Positions 25,532-39,927 of a stretch of DNA of 64,000 nt are shown piece by piece. Under the pieces are notes generated by a model. That model did no database searches. It worked only from the letters and a program-made list of their open reading frames with translations, and was not told where the DNA came from. This DNA comes from a phage, in sequence record PZ402301.1, one strand, 5' to 3'. Position 1 is the stretch's first letter. Each line of letters begins with the position of its first letter. A program made the translations under genes and the position numbers.

Positions 25532-25585
25532 TCCTCATGTTATGTCAGTAAGATTATTATAACACAATACGAGGGACTTGTAAAC
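25532..25585 (-). promoter_or_regulatory. early promoter cassette (copy A of 54-bp repeat): GTTTAC -35, 18-nt spacer, TATAAT -10, leader with GAGGA
   Basis: Minus strand reads GTTTACaagtccctcgtattgtgtTATAATaatcttactgacataacatGAGGaacacaaaATG; 51/54 identical to 41303-41356. Confidence 0.6.
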
Positions 25586-27642
25586 TACATCTTGAACTTT
25601 TTAGACATTCCGTTGATGTTAACCAAAGAAGCTAAGATTTGAGAAACTTCGTTTTCCTCTTCTTTTGATTCTTCTACAAGGAATTGATTAAACCCAGCCA
25701 TTGGACGAACTTCACCAGTTTCCATCAGATGATCGCCATCATATACCGATTCTTCTAATTGTTCAGAAGGAGGAACGATTGTACCTTCGATTAAATACTT
25801 GTTATAAGCAGTTTCTTTCATCATGTACGTGCTCACTTTATTAATCTTCAGCAAAATTCCACGTGGTAAAATAACTTCAGCTTCTGACGGAAATCCTGAT
25901 AAATGACCCGGAACGATAACTTTGATTCGCTCAGCTCCTTTAATTACCATACCTACGCTAGTTTCAGCATCTTCATTCGCATAAGCAGAATGACTGCCCA
26001 TATGCATCAAATCTTCTGCGTCAACTGAACCTTCTCCTTCACCAGAAAATACTGCACTGGAATCATCTAGAGCCATATAGTTTTTACCATACTCACCGAA
26101 GATATTTGGTTTAAGCGATGTGGATACGAAGTTCTTAAAATAGAACATTTTATTTTCAATATTATGACGTAAAGTTTTAAAGGTAACTTCTTGGCCACGG
26201 TAAAGCGTAGTTCCTGGAGGAAGAACTGATCCTTTGGCAAAAGCAGAATCCATCGTCTCGATGTGTTTAATAGCTCGTTCCATATATTCTTCACGAGTAG
26301 AATCTGGTTTACCCAAGAGGAACGAGTTCATTTCAACATATGAATCTGCACAATAATCTTCAATTACATCAGACTCAGCTTGAGTTAATCCTTTTGGAGT
26401 TACTTCAGTACTTGCATATTCATACGCTTGAGAAGCAGACTCATTAATCAATTTATAAACGCCATTCATGACAAATTGAACAATAGCTACCTTTTCATCT
26501 GGTGTGGCTTTAGAACCTTTAACTAAATCATTGACAATTTTCTTAATAACATCAAAGCTATTAGAAATATTAATGTCAGCAAGATCGCTTAAAATTTTAT
26601 CAGTTTTATAATCAAAAAATTCTTTATTCTTTAAATATTCTTGAGAACCTTGATATGTTATATCGCTCTGTAATTTAATAGATGGATCACGTAAACGCGC
26701 ATGGGCCAATGCAATATGATTTCGGAAGCTTTCTAGTTCATAATCACTAGATTTAAAACGAGAAGCACTCCTCATACCACCGATAGCTCCTTTGCTGAAG
26801 TTTGAACCAACCTGAATAACGCCGGAGTTCATTGGTCCTTCTGCTTTATATACCGGAACTTTAGATTCAAACTCTTGATATTTCTTAGCAGCGAAGCTAT
26901 CACCCTGAAGTGAAGCATCGACAGTAGAGTATTGAGCTTGTGCTGCTAATCGACGACTAATTTTAGTTTTCTGAATAACAGCTTGATCCGTACGCTTATC
27001 ATTTTCTAGAGCAATAGAAGCGGCAACAGCAACAGCTTTAGGAACAGCATTGCCTGTTTTAACATCTACATAAACATCACCAACCTTTGATTCAACCTTT
27101 GTGAATAACTCAGTTGAAATAGGAGGTACACCTGGAATGTCTTCTAAATTGGCATTTTTACGGTAAACCATAATATATGCATACTTTTTATCATAGTCCC
27201 AGATTTCCTTTAAAAGAACATATCGACCTGCTCCTTTAGTACGTACTAAACGGTCAGCAATAACTTGCATTTGACGAGTTGCACCGTTTGTTTTACTCTT
27301 TAGTACGCGGAATAGGCATGCGTCAATTTTATACTGTTTCATTGTTTGAAGAGCAGTATCAAAAACCGCATTAATGACACCAATTGGATTTCCACCCAAG
27401 TTTTTAAGTTTAACTAATGATAGTTTCTCATTAACACCTATCATTACAATATGCATCATTTTATCGCCTGGCTTAACGTTTTTATTTGTATCACCGCCAG
27501 AGGTGTATGTACAAAATCTAAATCCAGGAAGCACACTTTCTTCACCGGCTTGAATAGCAAAAATTTGAGGGATTTTATGCTTAGGATTTAAATTAACAAC
27601 CGGCGCCGAAGCGCCGTCAAATAATTCTGTAATAAGTTCCAT
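25585..27642 (-). CDS. Alt-like ADP-ribosyltransferase paralog (685 aa)
   Basis: Starts MELITELFD like Alt; N-terminal half closely similar to the adjacent 698-aa gene; C-terminal half has ART-like motifs (LYRGQ, FVSTSL, EAEVILPRG) but diverges. Confidence 0.85.
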   Translation of the reverse strand: MELITELFDGASAPVVNLNPKHKIPQIFAIQAGEESVLPGFRFCTYTSGGDTNKNVKPGDKMMHIVMIGVNEKLSLVKLKNLGGNPIGVINAVFDTALQTMKQYKIDACLFRVLKSKTNGATRQMQVIADRLVRTKGAGRYVLLKEIWDYDKKYAYIMVYRKNANLEDIPGVPPISTELFTKVESKVGDVYVDVKTGNAVPKAVAVAASIALENDKRTDQAVIQKTKISRRLAAQAQYSTVDASLQGDSFAAKKYQEFESKVPVYKAEGPMNSGVIQVGSNFSKGAIGGMRSASRFKSSDYELESFRNHIALAHARLRDPSIKLQSDITYQGSQEYLKNKEFFDYKTDKILSDLADINISNSFDVIKKIVNDLVKGSKATPDEKVAIVQFVMNGVYKLINESASQAYEYASTEVTPKGLTQAESDVIEDYCADSYVEMNSFLLGKPDSTREEYMERAIKHIETMDSAFAKGSVLPPGTTLYRGQEVTFKTLRHNIENKMFYFKNFVSTSLKPNIFGEYGKNYMALDDSSAVFSGEGEGSVDAEDLMHMGSHSAYANEDAETSVGMVIKGAERIKVIVPGHLSGFPSEAEVILPRGILLKINKVSTYMMKETAYNKYLIEGTIVPPSEQLEESVYDGDHLMETGEVRPMAGFNQFLVEESKEEENEVSQILASLVNINGMSKKFKM

Positions 27643-27645
27643 GAT

Positions 27646-29742
27646 TTATCCTTGAACGAACTTGTAAGGCATGTTTGTAATATCTATGCAAGACGCAATA
27701 ATTCCAAGAGATGATTCTACTTTCTGTTTAACATTTGATGAAACAAATGATGCAAAGTCAACTCTGTCTTCTATTTCAATATCACCTGTCATTGCAACTA
27801 CTTCACCAGTTTCCATTAGACGGTCACCGTCATAAATGACTGATTCGGTGAGTTCTTCCGTGGTCATAACTTCAGCTTGAATGAGTTTTGTATTATTAGA
27901 TGTTGTTCCGTCATTATTAGAAGCATCAGTTATTTTATTAACTTTGACCATCAATCCGCGTGGTAGAATAACTTCAGCTTCTGTTGCTATTCCGAGATTT
28001 CCTGGATATACAACATTAACTTTATGAGCTCCATCAATTGCCCATCCTATTTGAACTTTAACGTATTCAGGATTTTCTTTATACGCTCTTATTTCGTTTG
28101 GATTAATAGTTATTCCTTCTTCATTTTTATCAACTGTCAATTCATTACGAGCTTCTGGTTCTAAAAGACCAATACCAGCATGTGTAATTCCAAAACGTCC
28201 AAAAATGATAGGAGTTAAAGAAGTAGATACAAAATTTCTGAAATAGAACACTTTATTTTTAACTAGCGCTTCGTATATAGGAGCAGTCATACTTTGAGCA
28301 CGATAAACTGTAATGCCTTCTGGTATACGGTCACCGTTTTCAAAAGCTGAATCTAAGTTATTTATAGCAGATTCAATTTCTTTTTCACTCATTACATCAT
28401 ATCGTTCTGGATTGTAGCGTCCTAAAAGAAGATTATTGATGTCAGTATATCCTGAACCACAATATTCTCTAATGCCGCGCTTTTGCGATGGAGTATATTT
28501 AGAACCATCACGTGCAATGGTAATATCAATCATTGGACCTGCACCAATTCCAGAAAAGCTATAAATCATTCGTTTGAGGAATTTAGTTTTTGCTGCGTTC
28601 CAGGAATTTTTAGTTATTTCTTCCCAGACTTCATCTGGCTGTCCTTTACGGGTTTTATTATGTTTATCAAGCCAAGTATCTTTATATTCTTCAAAGAATT
28701 TATTAATAGCTGCTGCATACTTCTCTAAACATTTTATTGAAGTAGTTGGTTCATTTTTGATCGCATTAAGAATTACATCTTTAATTTTTTCAGAAACTTC
28801 ATTAACCTCACTTTTTGAAAAGAATTTATAGTCATAGTGAAGTTCATCTGCAGTCCCTTCAGCAATAATTTTTGCTGCCTTAGTTTTAGAAGCTAATGAA
28901 TTAATTCCAAGCTTCATTTCTTCTGCTTCGGGAATTAAAGGAGCTGTAGCAGGTTTATTGAAATTAGCTGCGGTAGATTCATATTTCTGGAATAATTCAC
29001 TTTCAAATCTAGAAGATTCCAATGACTGACTTTGTGCAATTGCTCTACGGGAAATTTTAACTTTAACGATTACAGCTTGGTCAGTGCGTTTATCATTTTC
29101 TTGTGCAATAGATGCTGCAATTGCCTCATTTTTAGTTACTTGAGCTCCAGTATCTTTATTGATATAAACATCGCCGACTTTCGATTCAACTTTAGTAAAG
29201 AGCTCGGTACTAATTTCCGGAACTCCTGGAATGTCTTCTAGTGATACATTTTTGCGATGTATAAGAATATATGCGTACTTTTTATCGTAATCCCAGAGTT
29301 CCTTAAGAAGGACGTATCTGCCACCTGAACGACTGCGGATAAGTCTATCAGCAATAAGTTGAATTTGTCGAGCTTGGCCAGCAGTTTTAGACTTAAGAAT
29401 ACGGAGCATACAGGCATCAATTTTATACTGACGCATCGTCTGCATTGCAACAGTAAAAACTGAATTGATATAATTAATTGGGCTTGGACCGAGACCTTTT
29501 AATTTAGCAATTGAACCTTTAGCAGTTAATGTAAAAGGAACAATATGCATCATTTTATCGCCCATCTTTAAATCGCGATTAGTATCACCTCCAGATGTAT
29601 AGGTACATAAACGAAAGCCTGGTTGTTCAATTGCGTCATCAACATGAACTGAAAAAATTTGCGGTATTTTCTTCTTTGGATTTAAGTTTGTAATCGGAAG
29701 AGTAGTATCTTCGTCAAATAATTCTGTAATGAGTTCCATCAT
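27646..29742 (-). CDS. alt: Alt ADP-ribosyltransferase, packaged internal head protein
   Basis: 698 aa; N-terminus MMELITELFDEDTTLPITNL matches my recall of T4 Alt (true start may be the second ATG at 29739); ART motifs VYRAQ, FVSTSL, EAEVILPRG. Confidence 0.88.
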   Translation of the reverse strand: MMELITELFDEDTTLPITNLNPKKKIPQIFSVHVDDAIEQPGFRLCTYTSGGDTNRDLKMGDKMMHIVPFTLTAKGSIAKLKGLGPSPINYINSVFTVAMQTMRQYKIDACMLRILKSKTAGQARQIQLIADRLIRSRSGGRYVLLKELWDYDKKYAYILIHRKNVSLEDIPGVPEISTELFTKVESKVGDVYINKDTGAQVTKNEAIAASIAQENDKRTDQAVIVKVKISRRAIAQSQSLESSRFESELFQKYESTAANFNKPATAPLIPEAEEMKLGINSLASKTKAAKIIAEGTADELHYDYKFFSKSEVNEVSEKIKDVILNAIKNEPTTSIKCLEKYAAAINKFFEEYKDTWLDKHNKTRKGQPDEVWEEITKNSWNAAKTKFLKRMIYSFSGIGAGPMIDITIARDGSKYTPSQKRGIREYCGSGYTDINNLLLGRYNPERYDVMSEKEIESAINNLDSAFENGDRIPEGITVYRAQSMTAPIYEALVKNKVFYFRNFVSTSLTPIIFGRFGITHAGIGLLEPEARNELTVDKNEEGITINPNEIRAYKENPEYVKVQIGWAIDGAHKVNVVYPGNLGIATEAEVILPRGLMVKVNKITDASNNDGTTSNNTKLIQAEVMTTEELTESVIYDGDRLMETGEVVAMTGDIEIEDRVDFASFVSSNVKQKVESSLGIIASCIDITNMPYKFVQG

Positions 29743-31440: not shown

Positions 31441-31706
31441 TACTCATCCTTCAAGGTTTGGTTTACAGCTCTATTATAAATCAATTCATCATTAAGCTCA
31501 GGCAAAGACTTATGATATGTAGTTCTAACTTTATTTCCTTGCATCCAGTGCTTGACGTAAATGAAACCTTGCTCTACACATTTTTTAAAAATTCGTTCGT
31601 CTTTTTGAGCTCGGAATTCTGGATTGCATCTAAAAAATTGATTTACGTGACCGTAATCACGTGTAGTATTACCTTCATTTTCATAAATAGTGTGAACAAC
31701 AAACAT
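31440..31706 (-). CDS. 30.1: hypothetical protein (positional 30.1)
   Basis: 88-aa ORF, ATG verified, abuts gene 30. Confidence 0.65.
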   Translation of the reverse strand: MFVVHTIYENEGNTTRDYGHVNQFFRCNPEFRAQKDERIFKKCVEQGFIYVKHWMQGNKVRTTYHKSLPELNDELIYNRAVNQTLKDE

Positions 31707-32545
31707 TAGAATGCTCCTTGGAAAATATTATCACCACAAGTAGGTCTATTATACAAATACTCTATGCCACCAGGTTTAATATAGTTCCATGTCTGAAACG
31801 GATGTGTCTGATATGGATGATATAGATGATTATAAGGATTAAATCCAGGCGTTCTCCAGGTAGTGTTCCAAGGAAAAGAATCGTTTTTAACCATCTTCTC
31901 AATTAAATCTTTTATAGCTTTTTCACTATCAAAACTTTCTTTATTTTCCTTCGGCGAAAAAAGCTTATTTTCTACATCATTCCATGTATAAACTCGCTGA
32001 GCGGTTTTTGGAATATTGTCACGCTCTCCTCGCGCCATCCAATAAACAGGAACATTTAATATTTCACTCGCATGATCGCAATGGTGAGCGAGATCGTCAA
32101 TGTAACAAATTACGTTATATTTCTCTTTTGCCTTTTTGAACAACTCTTCTTTTGAAGAATCATGACCACACATCATTACTTCTGAGAAGGCACCAGGAAA
32201 AAGAGCATTCAAATTAAATTGACGATTCAACAGAGCGTCAATAGAATCACCTAATGCTGTAACAGCTACAAAATTATAATCTTCTTTTAATTTGTTAATT
32301 ACACACAGGGCATCTTTATACGGAGACAAATAACGAATAAAATCTGAACGATTGTATTTTTCAATTAACTTGACGCCAAGTTCTTCGTCACAATTAAAGA
32401 GTTTACCCGGAGAAATAAATTTCTCATCTTGGATCATTTTTAAAATATGTTCTAATGGAAGATTATATTTCTGAGCAAAATAAGGAAGGCCTGATTGCCA
32501 GCTTAAACATACACCATCAATATCAGTCAAAATAGTTGGCTTCAT
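31706..32545 (-). CDS. 30.2: HAD-like phosphatase/nucleotidase-type protein (positional 30.2)
   Basis: 279 aa; N-terminal ILTDIDGV resembles HAD motif I (DxDG); functional call is inference. Confidence 0.6.
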   Translation of the reverse strand: MKPTILTDIDGVCLSWQSGLPYFAQKYNLPLEHILKMIQDEKFISPGKLFNCDEELGVKLIEKYNRSDFIRYLSPYKDALCVINKLKEDYNFVAVTALGDSIDALLNRQFNLNALFPGAFSEVMMCGHDSSKEELFKKAKEKYNVICYIDDLAHHCDHASEILNVPVYWMARGERDNIPKTAQRVYTWNDVENKLFSPKENKESFDSEKAIKDLIEKMVKNDSFPWNTTWRTPGFNPYNHLYHPYQTHPFQTWNYIKPGGIEYLYNRPTCGDNIFQGAF

Positions 32546-33006
32546 AGAGAGTCTCTTAATAGGTTTAACACATCAATAAATTCAGCTTCGGTTAGTATTG
32601 TATCATCTTTTGTTAGACCACTAGCCATGCTGTGCTTCAAAACTTTTCCTTTCGAGGCTTGTAATGCATCACGAAAGCCCTTGTTTTGGATCGCTGCTTC
32701 AAAATATGCATTTGTGTATAAATCTTTCCACGCTGAGGAGTATCTTGAAAATGGAACTCCGAGCCAGAAGAGGGTCCCACGGTCCTGAGCTCTTGCATAA
32801 GACCTTCCAGCTTGTTGGGCGGCAAGCCCGGATAACCCAAATATACGTCTTTGTTGTTCAACATTTTTCACCTTACACCCTTGGAGGAATCCTTCGAGAC
32901 CTCCAAATTGAATACCATCCATAACGAAAGGCCATTGGGCGAAATTACTTAATGCACATGATGGCCATCTAAAATTGCTTCTTATCTCTAGCTCAGACAT
33001 TTTCAA
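32542..33006 (-). CDS. 30.3: NADAR/YbiA-like (DUF1768) domain protein (positional 30.3)
   Basis: 154 aa; segment ALSNFAQWPFVMDGIQFGGLEGFLQ parallels the YbiA/NADAR core FSNFAAWP..DG....E.YFQ as I recall it. Confidence 0.6.
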   Translation of the reverse strand: MKMSELEIRSNFRWPSCALSNFAQWPFVMDGIQFGGLEGFLQGCKVKNVEQQRRIFGLSGLAAQQAGRSYARAQDRGTLFWLGVPFSRYSSAWKDLYTNAYFEAAIQNKGFRDALQASKGKVLKHSMASGLTKDDTILTEAEFIDVLNLLRDSL

Positions 33007-37217: not shown

Positions 37218-37450
37218 AGTACGCCATACACCCTTTGTGCTTCAACTAATCCATCAAAATCCAGTTTAAGATGTGTTATTTGGTCACCATCACCTGGATT
37301 CACAATTACTAATACTGAACGAGGAGTTTCGGTAATAACACGAACCGATGTTTCTGGAAATCGTTCAGAAACCTTATTTACCAATTCCTGAGCAAATAGT
37401 TTAACTTTTTCTTGGAATTCTTTAACAGTAATTGGTTTTTCACTTAGCAT
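37214..37450 (-). CDS. cd.2: hypothetical protein (positional cd.2)
   Basis: 78-aa ORF. Confidence 0.55.
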   Translation of the reverse strand: MLSEKPITVKEFQEKVKLFAQELVNKVSERFPETSVRVITETPRSVLVIVNPGDGDQITHLKLDFDGLVEAQRVYGVL

Positions 37451-37971
37451 GTTGATCCTAGCTCCTTACTTTCAACGTTTTTAACTAATTTGACAGAAAC
37501 TAATTCAGCATCTCGGGTAATCATTACCGGACCTTCTTCATACTCTTCAAGATATTCTAGAGCTTTCTTTTTAGCTTCTTCCTTCGTATCAGTTTGAGCA
37601 TAGATATAGAACATACAACCAGTAATACCTACTACTTTCCACTTAATTTCTTTATCAGCTTTAATTTCAAATTTACTTGTAGAATCATCTTTTTGAACTT
37701 CTTCGAAAAAAGAATATTCTAACATATAAGCAATTGAAAATAACGGGCTAACTTTATAGGATTCACCCATTACATCAACAGCTTTATACCAACAATCATC
37801 AATTTCACGTTTAATGCTAATAACATTTTTCGCAGGATCTATTTTTACTTTAAATGAATTTTCCCCAATAAACTGGGCAATTCGTTTATTAGCCCCGCAA
37901 GTTTCATTAAAAATATCTTTATATCCAGCTTTAAAGCGATAAACCTTATCTTCTTCAAACCATTCGCTCAT
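37444..37971 (-). CDS. cd.3: hypothetical protein (positional cd.3)
   Basis: 175-aa ORF. Confidence 0.6.
   Translation of the reverse strand: MSEWFEEDKVYRFKAGYKDIFNETCGANKRIAQFIGENSFKVKIDPAKNVISIKREIDDCWYKAVDVMGESYKVSPLFSIAYMLEYSFFEEVQKDDSTSKFEIKADKEIKWKVVGITGCMFYIYAQTDTKEEAKKKALEYLEEYEEGPVMITRDAELVSVKLVKNVESKELGSTC

Positions 37972-38702: not shown

Positions 38703-39927
<1,225 letters not shown>

Follow-up and report, generated by a model that had tools for sequence, protein, structure and literature searches.

Gene 30.3 of a T4-like phage as a predicted adfN orthologue that would counter DarTG1 defense through guanine ADP-ribose removal

Gene 30.3 of bacteriophage T4 encodes a NADAR-fold DNA ADP-ribosylglycohydrolase, renamed AdfN, that is needed for T4 resistance to the DarTG1 defense system (PMC11825919, Nat Commun 2025). 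Using crosses of RB69 with T2 and T4, Johannesman et al. (2025) located DarTG1 resistance in 30.3, found that deletion of adfN makes T4 sensitive to DarTG1, and found that AdfN expression is sufficient to rescue RB69; by deletion, complementation, and the RB69 x T2/T4 crosses, DarTG1 resistance during infection has been demonstrated for the T4 and T2 alleles (PMC11825919). Purified AdfN-T4 strips ADP-ribose from DarT1-modified DNA, but the purified E36A variant leaves the DNA signal for ADP-ribose undiminished in vitro, and E36A gives partial rescue of RB69 (PMC11825919). AdfN-T4 is also weakened by K43A, and the allele of RB69, in which a frameshift removes the C-terminal helix, gives no protection (PMC11825919). 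With respect to substrates, purified T4 gp30.3 hydrolyzes guanosine-ADPr, not thymidine-ADPr, in vitro (Toxins 2024, PMC11125620), the substrates listed for phage NADARs include G-ADPr and not C-ADPr (2026 Toxins paper, PMC12945103), and Schuller et al. (2023) reported that NADARs reverse the guanine ADP-ribosylation made by DarT1 (PMC11543638). Phage NADARs were classified by De Souza and Aravind, a classification given here as it is cited in PMC11125620 and PMC11543638.

Protection by AdfN depends on context. Uninfected Escherichia coli was not rescued from DarT1 by AdfN-T4, infections by T5 and Bas25 were barely helped, and the authors suspected that AdfN requires a further T-even factor (PMC11825919). 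Because AdfN-T4 performs poorly outside T-even infection, a picture of a free-standing antitoxin is incomplete, and a T-even-specific factor would also be needed.

Other described proteins share either the purpose or the fold of AdfN. AdfA (T4 gp61.2) and AdfB (ICP1) likewise defeat DarTG defense, but both are small proteins with no enzymatic activity and seem to inhibit DarT by interacting with it, whereas AdfN acts on the product and shows no stable DarT1 binding (PMC11825919). The NADAR domains of DarG1 antitoxins (the BC4488 family, including the Geobacter lovleyi NADAR of PDB entry 8bat and the E. coli C7 NADAR) are linked to darT1. E. coli YbiA (PF08719, NADAR/DUF1768; PDB 2b3w) is encoded in an operon under LexA control together with dinG, rhlE, and ybiB (PMC11125620), neighbors that were also observed here. 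A residue on the last beta-strand separates these clades, being His in phage NADARs, Glu in the YbiA family, and Asp in DarG1 (PMC11125620, PMC11543638).

The window analyzed here, a 64,000-nucleotide stretch of phage DNA (sequence record PZ402301.1), came from a Tequatrovirus (T4-like phage). The 4-kb stretch around 30.3 was 97 to 98% identical to many Tequatrovirus genomes, and the window kept the T4 map order of gene 54, alt, 30, 30.1 to 30.9, rIII, 31, cd, and pseT. Two ORFs within this order lacked a T4 counterpart at the same place and any Pfam match: a 175-aa ORF between cd.2 and cd.3 (positions 37444 to 37971, minus strand; phrog_3710, unknown function) and a 106-aa ORF between pseT and pseT.1 (39607 to 39927, minus strand; phrog_2364, unknown function).

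A sequence-only reading of the window had placed a 154-aa protein at positions 32542 to 33006. The ORF exists on the minus strand, and its start was corrected. The 154-aa form begins at a TTG at 33006, which adds 2 residues relative to an ATG at 33000. This ATG, two codons past the TTG, is the start in the T4 annotation of 30.3 and yields 152 aa, it overlaps the stop codon of 30.4 (ATGTCTGA), and only numbering from 33000 puts a Glu at the published position 36 (E36) and a Lys at position 43 (K43); for these reasons it was taken as the start. The preferred gene 30.3 (adfN) coding sequence thus covers 32542 to 33000 on the minus strand, with 152 codons and a TGA stop. It sits in a leftward gene run common to T4 (30.4, 30.3, 30.2, 30.1, and ligase) with overlapping start and stop codons, including the overlap of the 30.3 stop with the 30.2 start (ATGA). 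A second ATG-started ORF of 75 aa lies inside 30.3 in another reading frame (32637 to 32864, minus strand); it corresponds to the 30.3' annotated in T4 as "internal translation in a different reading frame," and its PHROG match is phrog_14037, with an E value of 4e-42.

Compared with T4 gp30.3 (NP_049816), the predicted protein had the same length and was identical at 149 of 152 residues (98%). Thirteen codons differed, 10 of them synonymously, and the three substitutions (P89S, E93D, and I125M) all fell outside the columns that were invariant in a 90-member alignment of the gp30.3 family. Purifying selection on the gene would be expected to give such a pattern of codon changes. A pseudogene or a truncated allele like that of RB69 was considered and rejected, since 30.3 was full length, had no frameshift relative to T4, and carried 10 synonymous versus 3 non-synonymous changes. 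Position between 30.4 and 30.2, the overlapping codons, the counterparts of E36, K43, and H123, and an intact C-terminal helix were likewise shared with AdfN of T4 (PF08010; phage NADAR clade). On this sequence evidence, the ORF at 32542 to 33000 is the orthologue of T4 gene 30.3, the gene named adfN (anti-DarT factor NADAR) in the literature.

The relationship to NADAR proteins could be traced from the sequence in several ways. A core motif similar to that of YbiA/NADAR (DUF1768) proteins, pointed out in the sequence-only reading, was indeed present at aa 16 to 40 counted from the ATG (ALSNFAQWPFVMDGIQFGGLEGFLQ; 32881 to 32955, minus strand), comprising the first beta-hairpin together with the beginning of the catalytic helix, and the YbiA consensus given in that reading was accurate. 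The motif matched the YbiA core pattern SNFA.WP...DG......E.F.Q..K, with YbiA residues 29 to 52 as its counterpart. In pairwise BLASTP of the 30.3 protein against E. coli YbiA, LSNFAQWPFVMDGIQFGGLEGFLQGCK paired with FSNFAAWPIKVDGKTWPTSEHYFQAQK at an E value of 8e-6. The similarity of this motif to YbiA is genuine at the level of sequence and exceeds chance.

Searches with the single protein returned less. When the 30.3 protein alone was scanned against Pfam with hmmscan, PF08010 (Phage_30_3) was matched at 232.5 bits against a gathering cutoff of 36 (E value of 1.6e-69, profile positions 1 to 138 of 138) and was the only family returned, with PF08719 absent even at E values up to 10. Single-sequence phmmer of the protein against PDB sequences and an NCBIfam scan were also without a match. 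The link to NADAR proteins appeared at the level of families: 35 of the 90 gp30.3-family homologues individually matched PF08719 (best E value of 1.5e-7), an HMM of the gp30.3 family matched E. coli YbiA (PDB 2b3w) over the same motif stretch with an E value of 0.0058 against all PDB sequences, and hhalign of the gp30.3 family alignment against a 60-member YbiA-family alignment gave 97.4% probability with an E value of 1.2e-11 over 125 columns. JGI also names several metagenomic 30.3 homologues "YbiA (DUF1768 family)." The PF08719 profile search that had been proposed as a check would therefore mislead as a false negative if applied to the single protein, but the link it was meant to detect stood at the family and profile level. 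Because the single 30.3 protein lacked both a PF08719 and a PDB match, its assignment to the NADAR proteins depends on profile comparisons and on the fold, by which we regard it as an established member of the NADAR superfamily (YbiA fold; PF08719 and relatives).

Structure prediction, also proposed as a check, gave a modeled YbiA fold. AlphaFold2 run on the single 30.3 sequence was unusable (pLDDT of 35.6), and the model was taken from a run on the 90-sequence alignment; it contained the alpha-helical core flanked by two small beta-sheets that defines the YbiA fold. The expected catalytic residues could be located in it and in the alignments, with the SNF motif, Glu36 on the first core helix, and Lys43 seven residues later all present. 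P13, A16, L17, S18, N19, F20, F25, E36, G37, F38, and Q40 were invariant in all 90 family members. Alignment with hhalign paired S18-N19-F20 with YbiA S30-N31-F32, D28-G29 with D40-G41, E36 with E48, Q40 with Q52, and K43 with K55, and both families showed little or no variation at these paired residues (S-N-F, D-G, E, Q, and K). The predicted catalytic glutamate, Glu36, is encoded by GAA at 32893 to 32895 (minus strand). Lys43, predicted to contact ADP-ribose, is encoded by AAG at 32872 to 32874 (minus strand) and was at least 90% conserved, while its partner K55 was invariant in the YbiA family. A C-terminal alpha-helix was modeled intact at aa 138 to 151 (32548 to 32589, minus strand).

The last beta-strand (aa 120 to 123 in the model) assigned the protein to a clade. 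It ended in His123 (CAC at 32632 to 32634, minus strand), which was invariant in the 90 homologues and marks the phage NADAR clade. The hhalign comparison paired H123 with YbiA H126 and left a gap opposite E125, the Glu that was invariant in the 60 YbiA-family sequences, while published work treats the phage His as equivalent to that Glu, a one-column discrepancy. By the hhalign pairing, the conserved last-strand Glu of the YbiA family proper was unmatched in 30.3, with His in the next column. The PF08010 score above the gathering threshold, the last-strand His123, and the full-length C-terminal helix together placed 30.3 in the phage NADAR clade with AdfN.

This clade assignment bears on whether 30.3 could instead be a housekeeping N-glycosidase of the YbiA type, with riboflavin-pathway intermediates as its substrates. 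YbiA, which unlike window 30.3 has a role in the metabolism of riboflavin intermediates, was among the nearest structural and sequence matches of the protein, but the identity was only about 18 to 20% over the fold, the last-strand Glu of the YbiA family was replaced by His, no riboflavin genes lay near 30.3, and protection is directed specifically at DarTG1 (PMC11825919). We consider such a housekeeping role extremely improbable.

Comparison with DarG1 antitoxins also showed clear differences. DarG1 NADARs are linked to darT1, whereas 30.3 is an orphan: its neighbors were 30.4 and 30.2, as in T4, and none of the flanking ORFs that were scanned matched a DarT-type family. DarG1 NADARs have Asp on the last strand where 30.3 has His123, and the 219-aa protein of 8bat contrasts with the core-only, 152-aa 30.3 protein, which lacks the N-terminal extension. 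The adjacent darT1, last-strand Asp, and N-terminal extension that characterize DarG1 antitoxins were thus all absent from 30.3. AdfN-T4 also differs from the DarG1 antitoxin in giving uninfected cells no protection from DarT1.

A mechanism for the gene can be proposed from work on its T4 counterpart. In a host carrying the DarTG1 toxin-antitoxin defense, infection would release DarT1, which would ADP-ribosylate guanines of the phage DNA and block replication. AdfN would then hydrolyze the guanine-ribose bond, freeing ADP-ribose and leaving the DNA unmodified again, and the phage would escape. In this scheme AdfN would be a copy of the DarG1 antitoxin that the phage carries as an orphan, in the form of a 152-aa single-domain N-glycosidase with a NADAR fold. 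Window 30.3 is very probably the orthologue of T4 adfN in this functional sense as well, an N-glycosidase repairing DarT1-made guanine ADP-ribosylation in phage DNA and so countering DarTG1. Enzymatic repair of DarT1-modified guanines is the most likely mechanism for the window gene because it is established for the T4 orthologue, and we infer that the window allele, with its three substitutions off conserved positions, would behave like T4 AdfN. The suggestion, made from the letters of the DNA, of a counter-defense against DarT-type DNA ADP-ribosylation therefore finds support in what has been demonstrated for the 98%-identical T4 protein (PMC11825919, PMC11125620).

The poor performance of AdfN as an antitoxin outside T-even infection could also be taken to mean that its main substrates are soluble ADP-ribose derivatives (immune signals, toxins, or RNA-repair by-products) or ADP-ribosylated RNA, with the anti-DarT1 effect being secondary. 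Iyer et al. are cited in favor of this view, and NADARs of all families remove G-ADPr from RNA in vitro (PMC12945103). However, T4 without adfN is sensitive to DarTG1, the purified enzyme clears ADP-ribose from DarT1-modified DNA (PMC11825919), and no soluble substrate has been demonstrated for the phage NADAR clade, leaving such main substrates unlikely and repair of DarT1-modified phage DNA the preferred function.

Gene order offered a further line of argument, as the sequence-only reading had drawn attention to two ADP-ribosyltransferases (ARTs) about 3 kb away. Both genes are real. Two Alt-type ARTs matching PF03496 lie at 25585 to 27642 and 27646 to 29742, both on the minus strand, with E values of 2e-20 and 3e-37. 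They are located 2.8 to 7 kb downstream of 30.3 on the same strand, with the nearer one ending 2.8 kb away and with ligase and three other genes in between. The use of this proximity as evidence for function did not hold, as it reflects a conserved order in close T4 relatives. Co-location of NADARs and ARTs in T4-like phages is already in print, along with their joint early expression (PMC9503650). A T4-like metagenomic contig with a 58%-identical homologue retained the order 30.3, 30.2, 30.1, ligase, and alt. In Klebsiella phage KP15 (Slopekvirus), 30.3, 30.2, and ligase were present with no annotated ART within 5 kb, and no ART was found within about 7 kb in six phage contexts outside the Straboviridae that carried 36 to 42%-identical homologues. 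An association of alt with the family as a whole was rejected on these grounds, the linkage being restricted to close T4 relatives, and it looks like inherited gene order rather than functional coupling.

Nearness to alt had implied that AdfN might reverse or limit ADP-ribosylation by the phage's own Alt and Mod transferases. The same-strand position of the two ARTs and the early expression that T4-like NADARs share with them would fit such a role, but the described targets of Alt are host proteins, for instance the alpha subunit of RNA polymerase (PMC9503650), while NADARs have been shown to cleave base-ribose bonds on guanine. The published target of AdfN is the product of host DarT1 activity rather than of phage ARTs, and the alt linkage, interrupted by ligase and three other genes, is confined to close relatives of T4. 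Action on the phage's own modifications is therefore very unlikely, and host DarT1 is retained as the adversary of choice.

The ART genes and the contexts of distant homologues provided separate observations. The two full-length Alt-type proteins of the window (685 and 698 aa) are arranged in tandem and are 41% identical to each other. T4 has one alt and short remnants of a second copy, alt.-1 and alt.-2, so the window phage retains an intact second paralogue. On two large non-T4 phage contigs, the neighbors within a few kb of a 30.3 homologue were a Nudix hydrolase and a Thg1-like gene (contig L005, 10115 to 10879 and 11308 to 12294, both minus strand) and a ribose-phosphate pyrophosphokinase-like gene (contig L007, 60 to 1022, plus strand). 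These neighbors hint at contexts of NAD/ADP-ribose or nucleotide metabolism, not at ART contexts.

The gene immediately downstream, 30.2 (279 aa; 31706 to 32545, minus strand), was considered as a source of the T-even factor. Its product has motifs resembling those of HAD phosphatases, with TDIDGV near the N terminus and YIDD around residue 148, colinear with the motifs of the PseT phosphatase domain. Family searches with gp30.2 found nothing in Pfam or NCBIfam and nothing meaningful in PDB; a weak PHROG match to polynucleotide kinase was obtained (E value of 0.0021), and a few GenBank records name it "putative phosphatase" or "HAD-like hydrolase." Gene 30.2 occurred in 1453 phage records compared to 1511 for 30.3, with near-identical counts by genus. 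The genes just downstream of distant 30.3 homologues were tried as 30.2 homologues and rejected (BLASTP E values of 18 and 3.3). Because the pairing is confined to the Straboviridae, the co-distribution of the two genes may be mere vertical inheritance. The gp30.2 protein is a possible but unlikely candidate for the T-even partner of AdfN, in which case the pair could form a two-step module for ADP-ribose removal and disposal.

Annotation has not kept pace with these findings. In a sample of 30 GenBank records from the 1,511 with a 30.3 homologue, nearly all label 30.3 "hypothetical protein," while isolated records use "NADAR domain containing protein" or "YbiA-like." Routine scanning against Pfam does not reveal that 30.3 is related to NADAR proteins, because PF08010 and PF08719 are separate models, which leaves room for better annotation pipelines. 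Reports from 2012 to 2026 had already described the gene family together with the NADAR fold, the action on guanine-ADP-ribose, and the counter-defense against DarTG1; the window contributes one further intact adfN allele and little else that is new.
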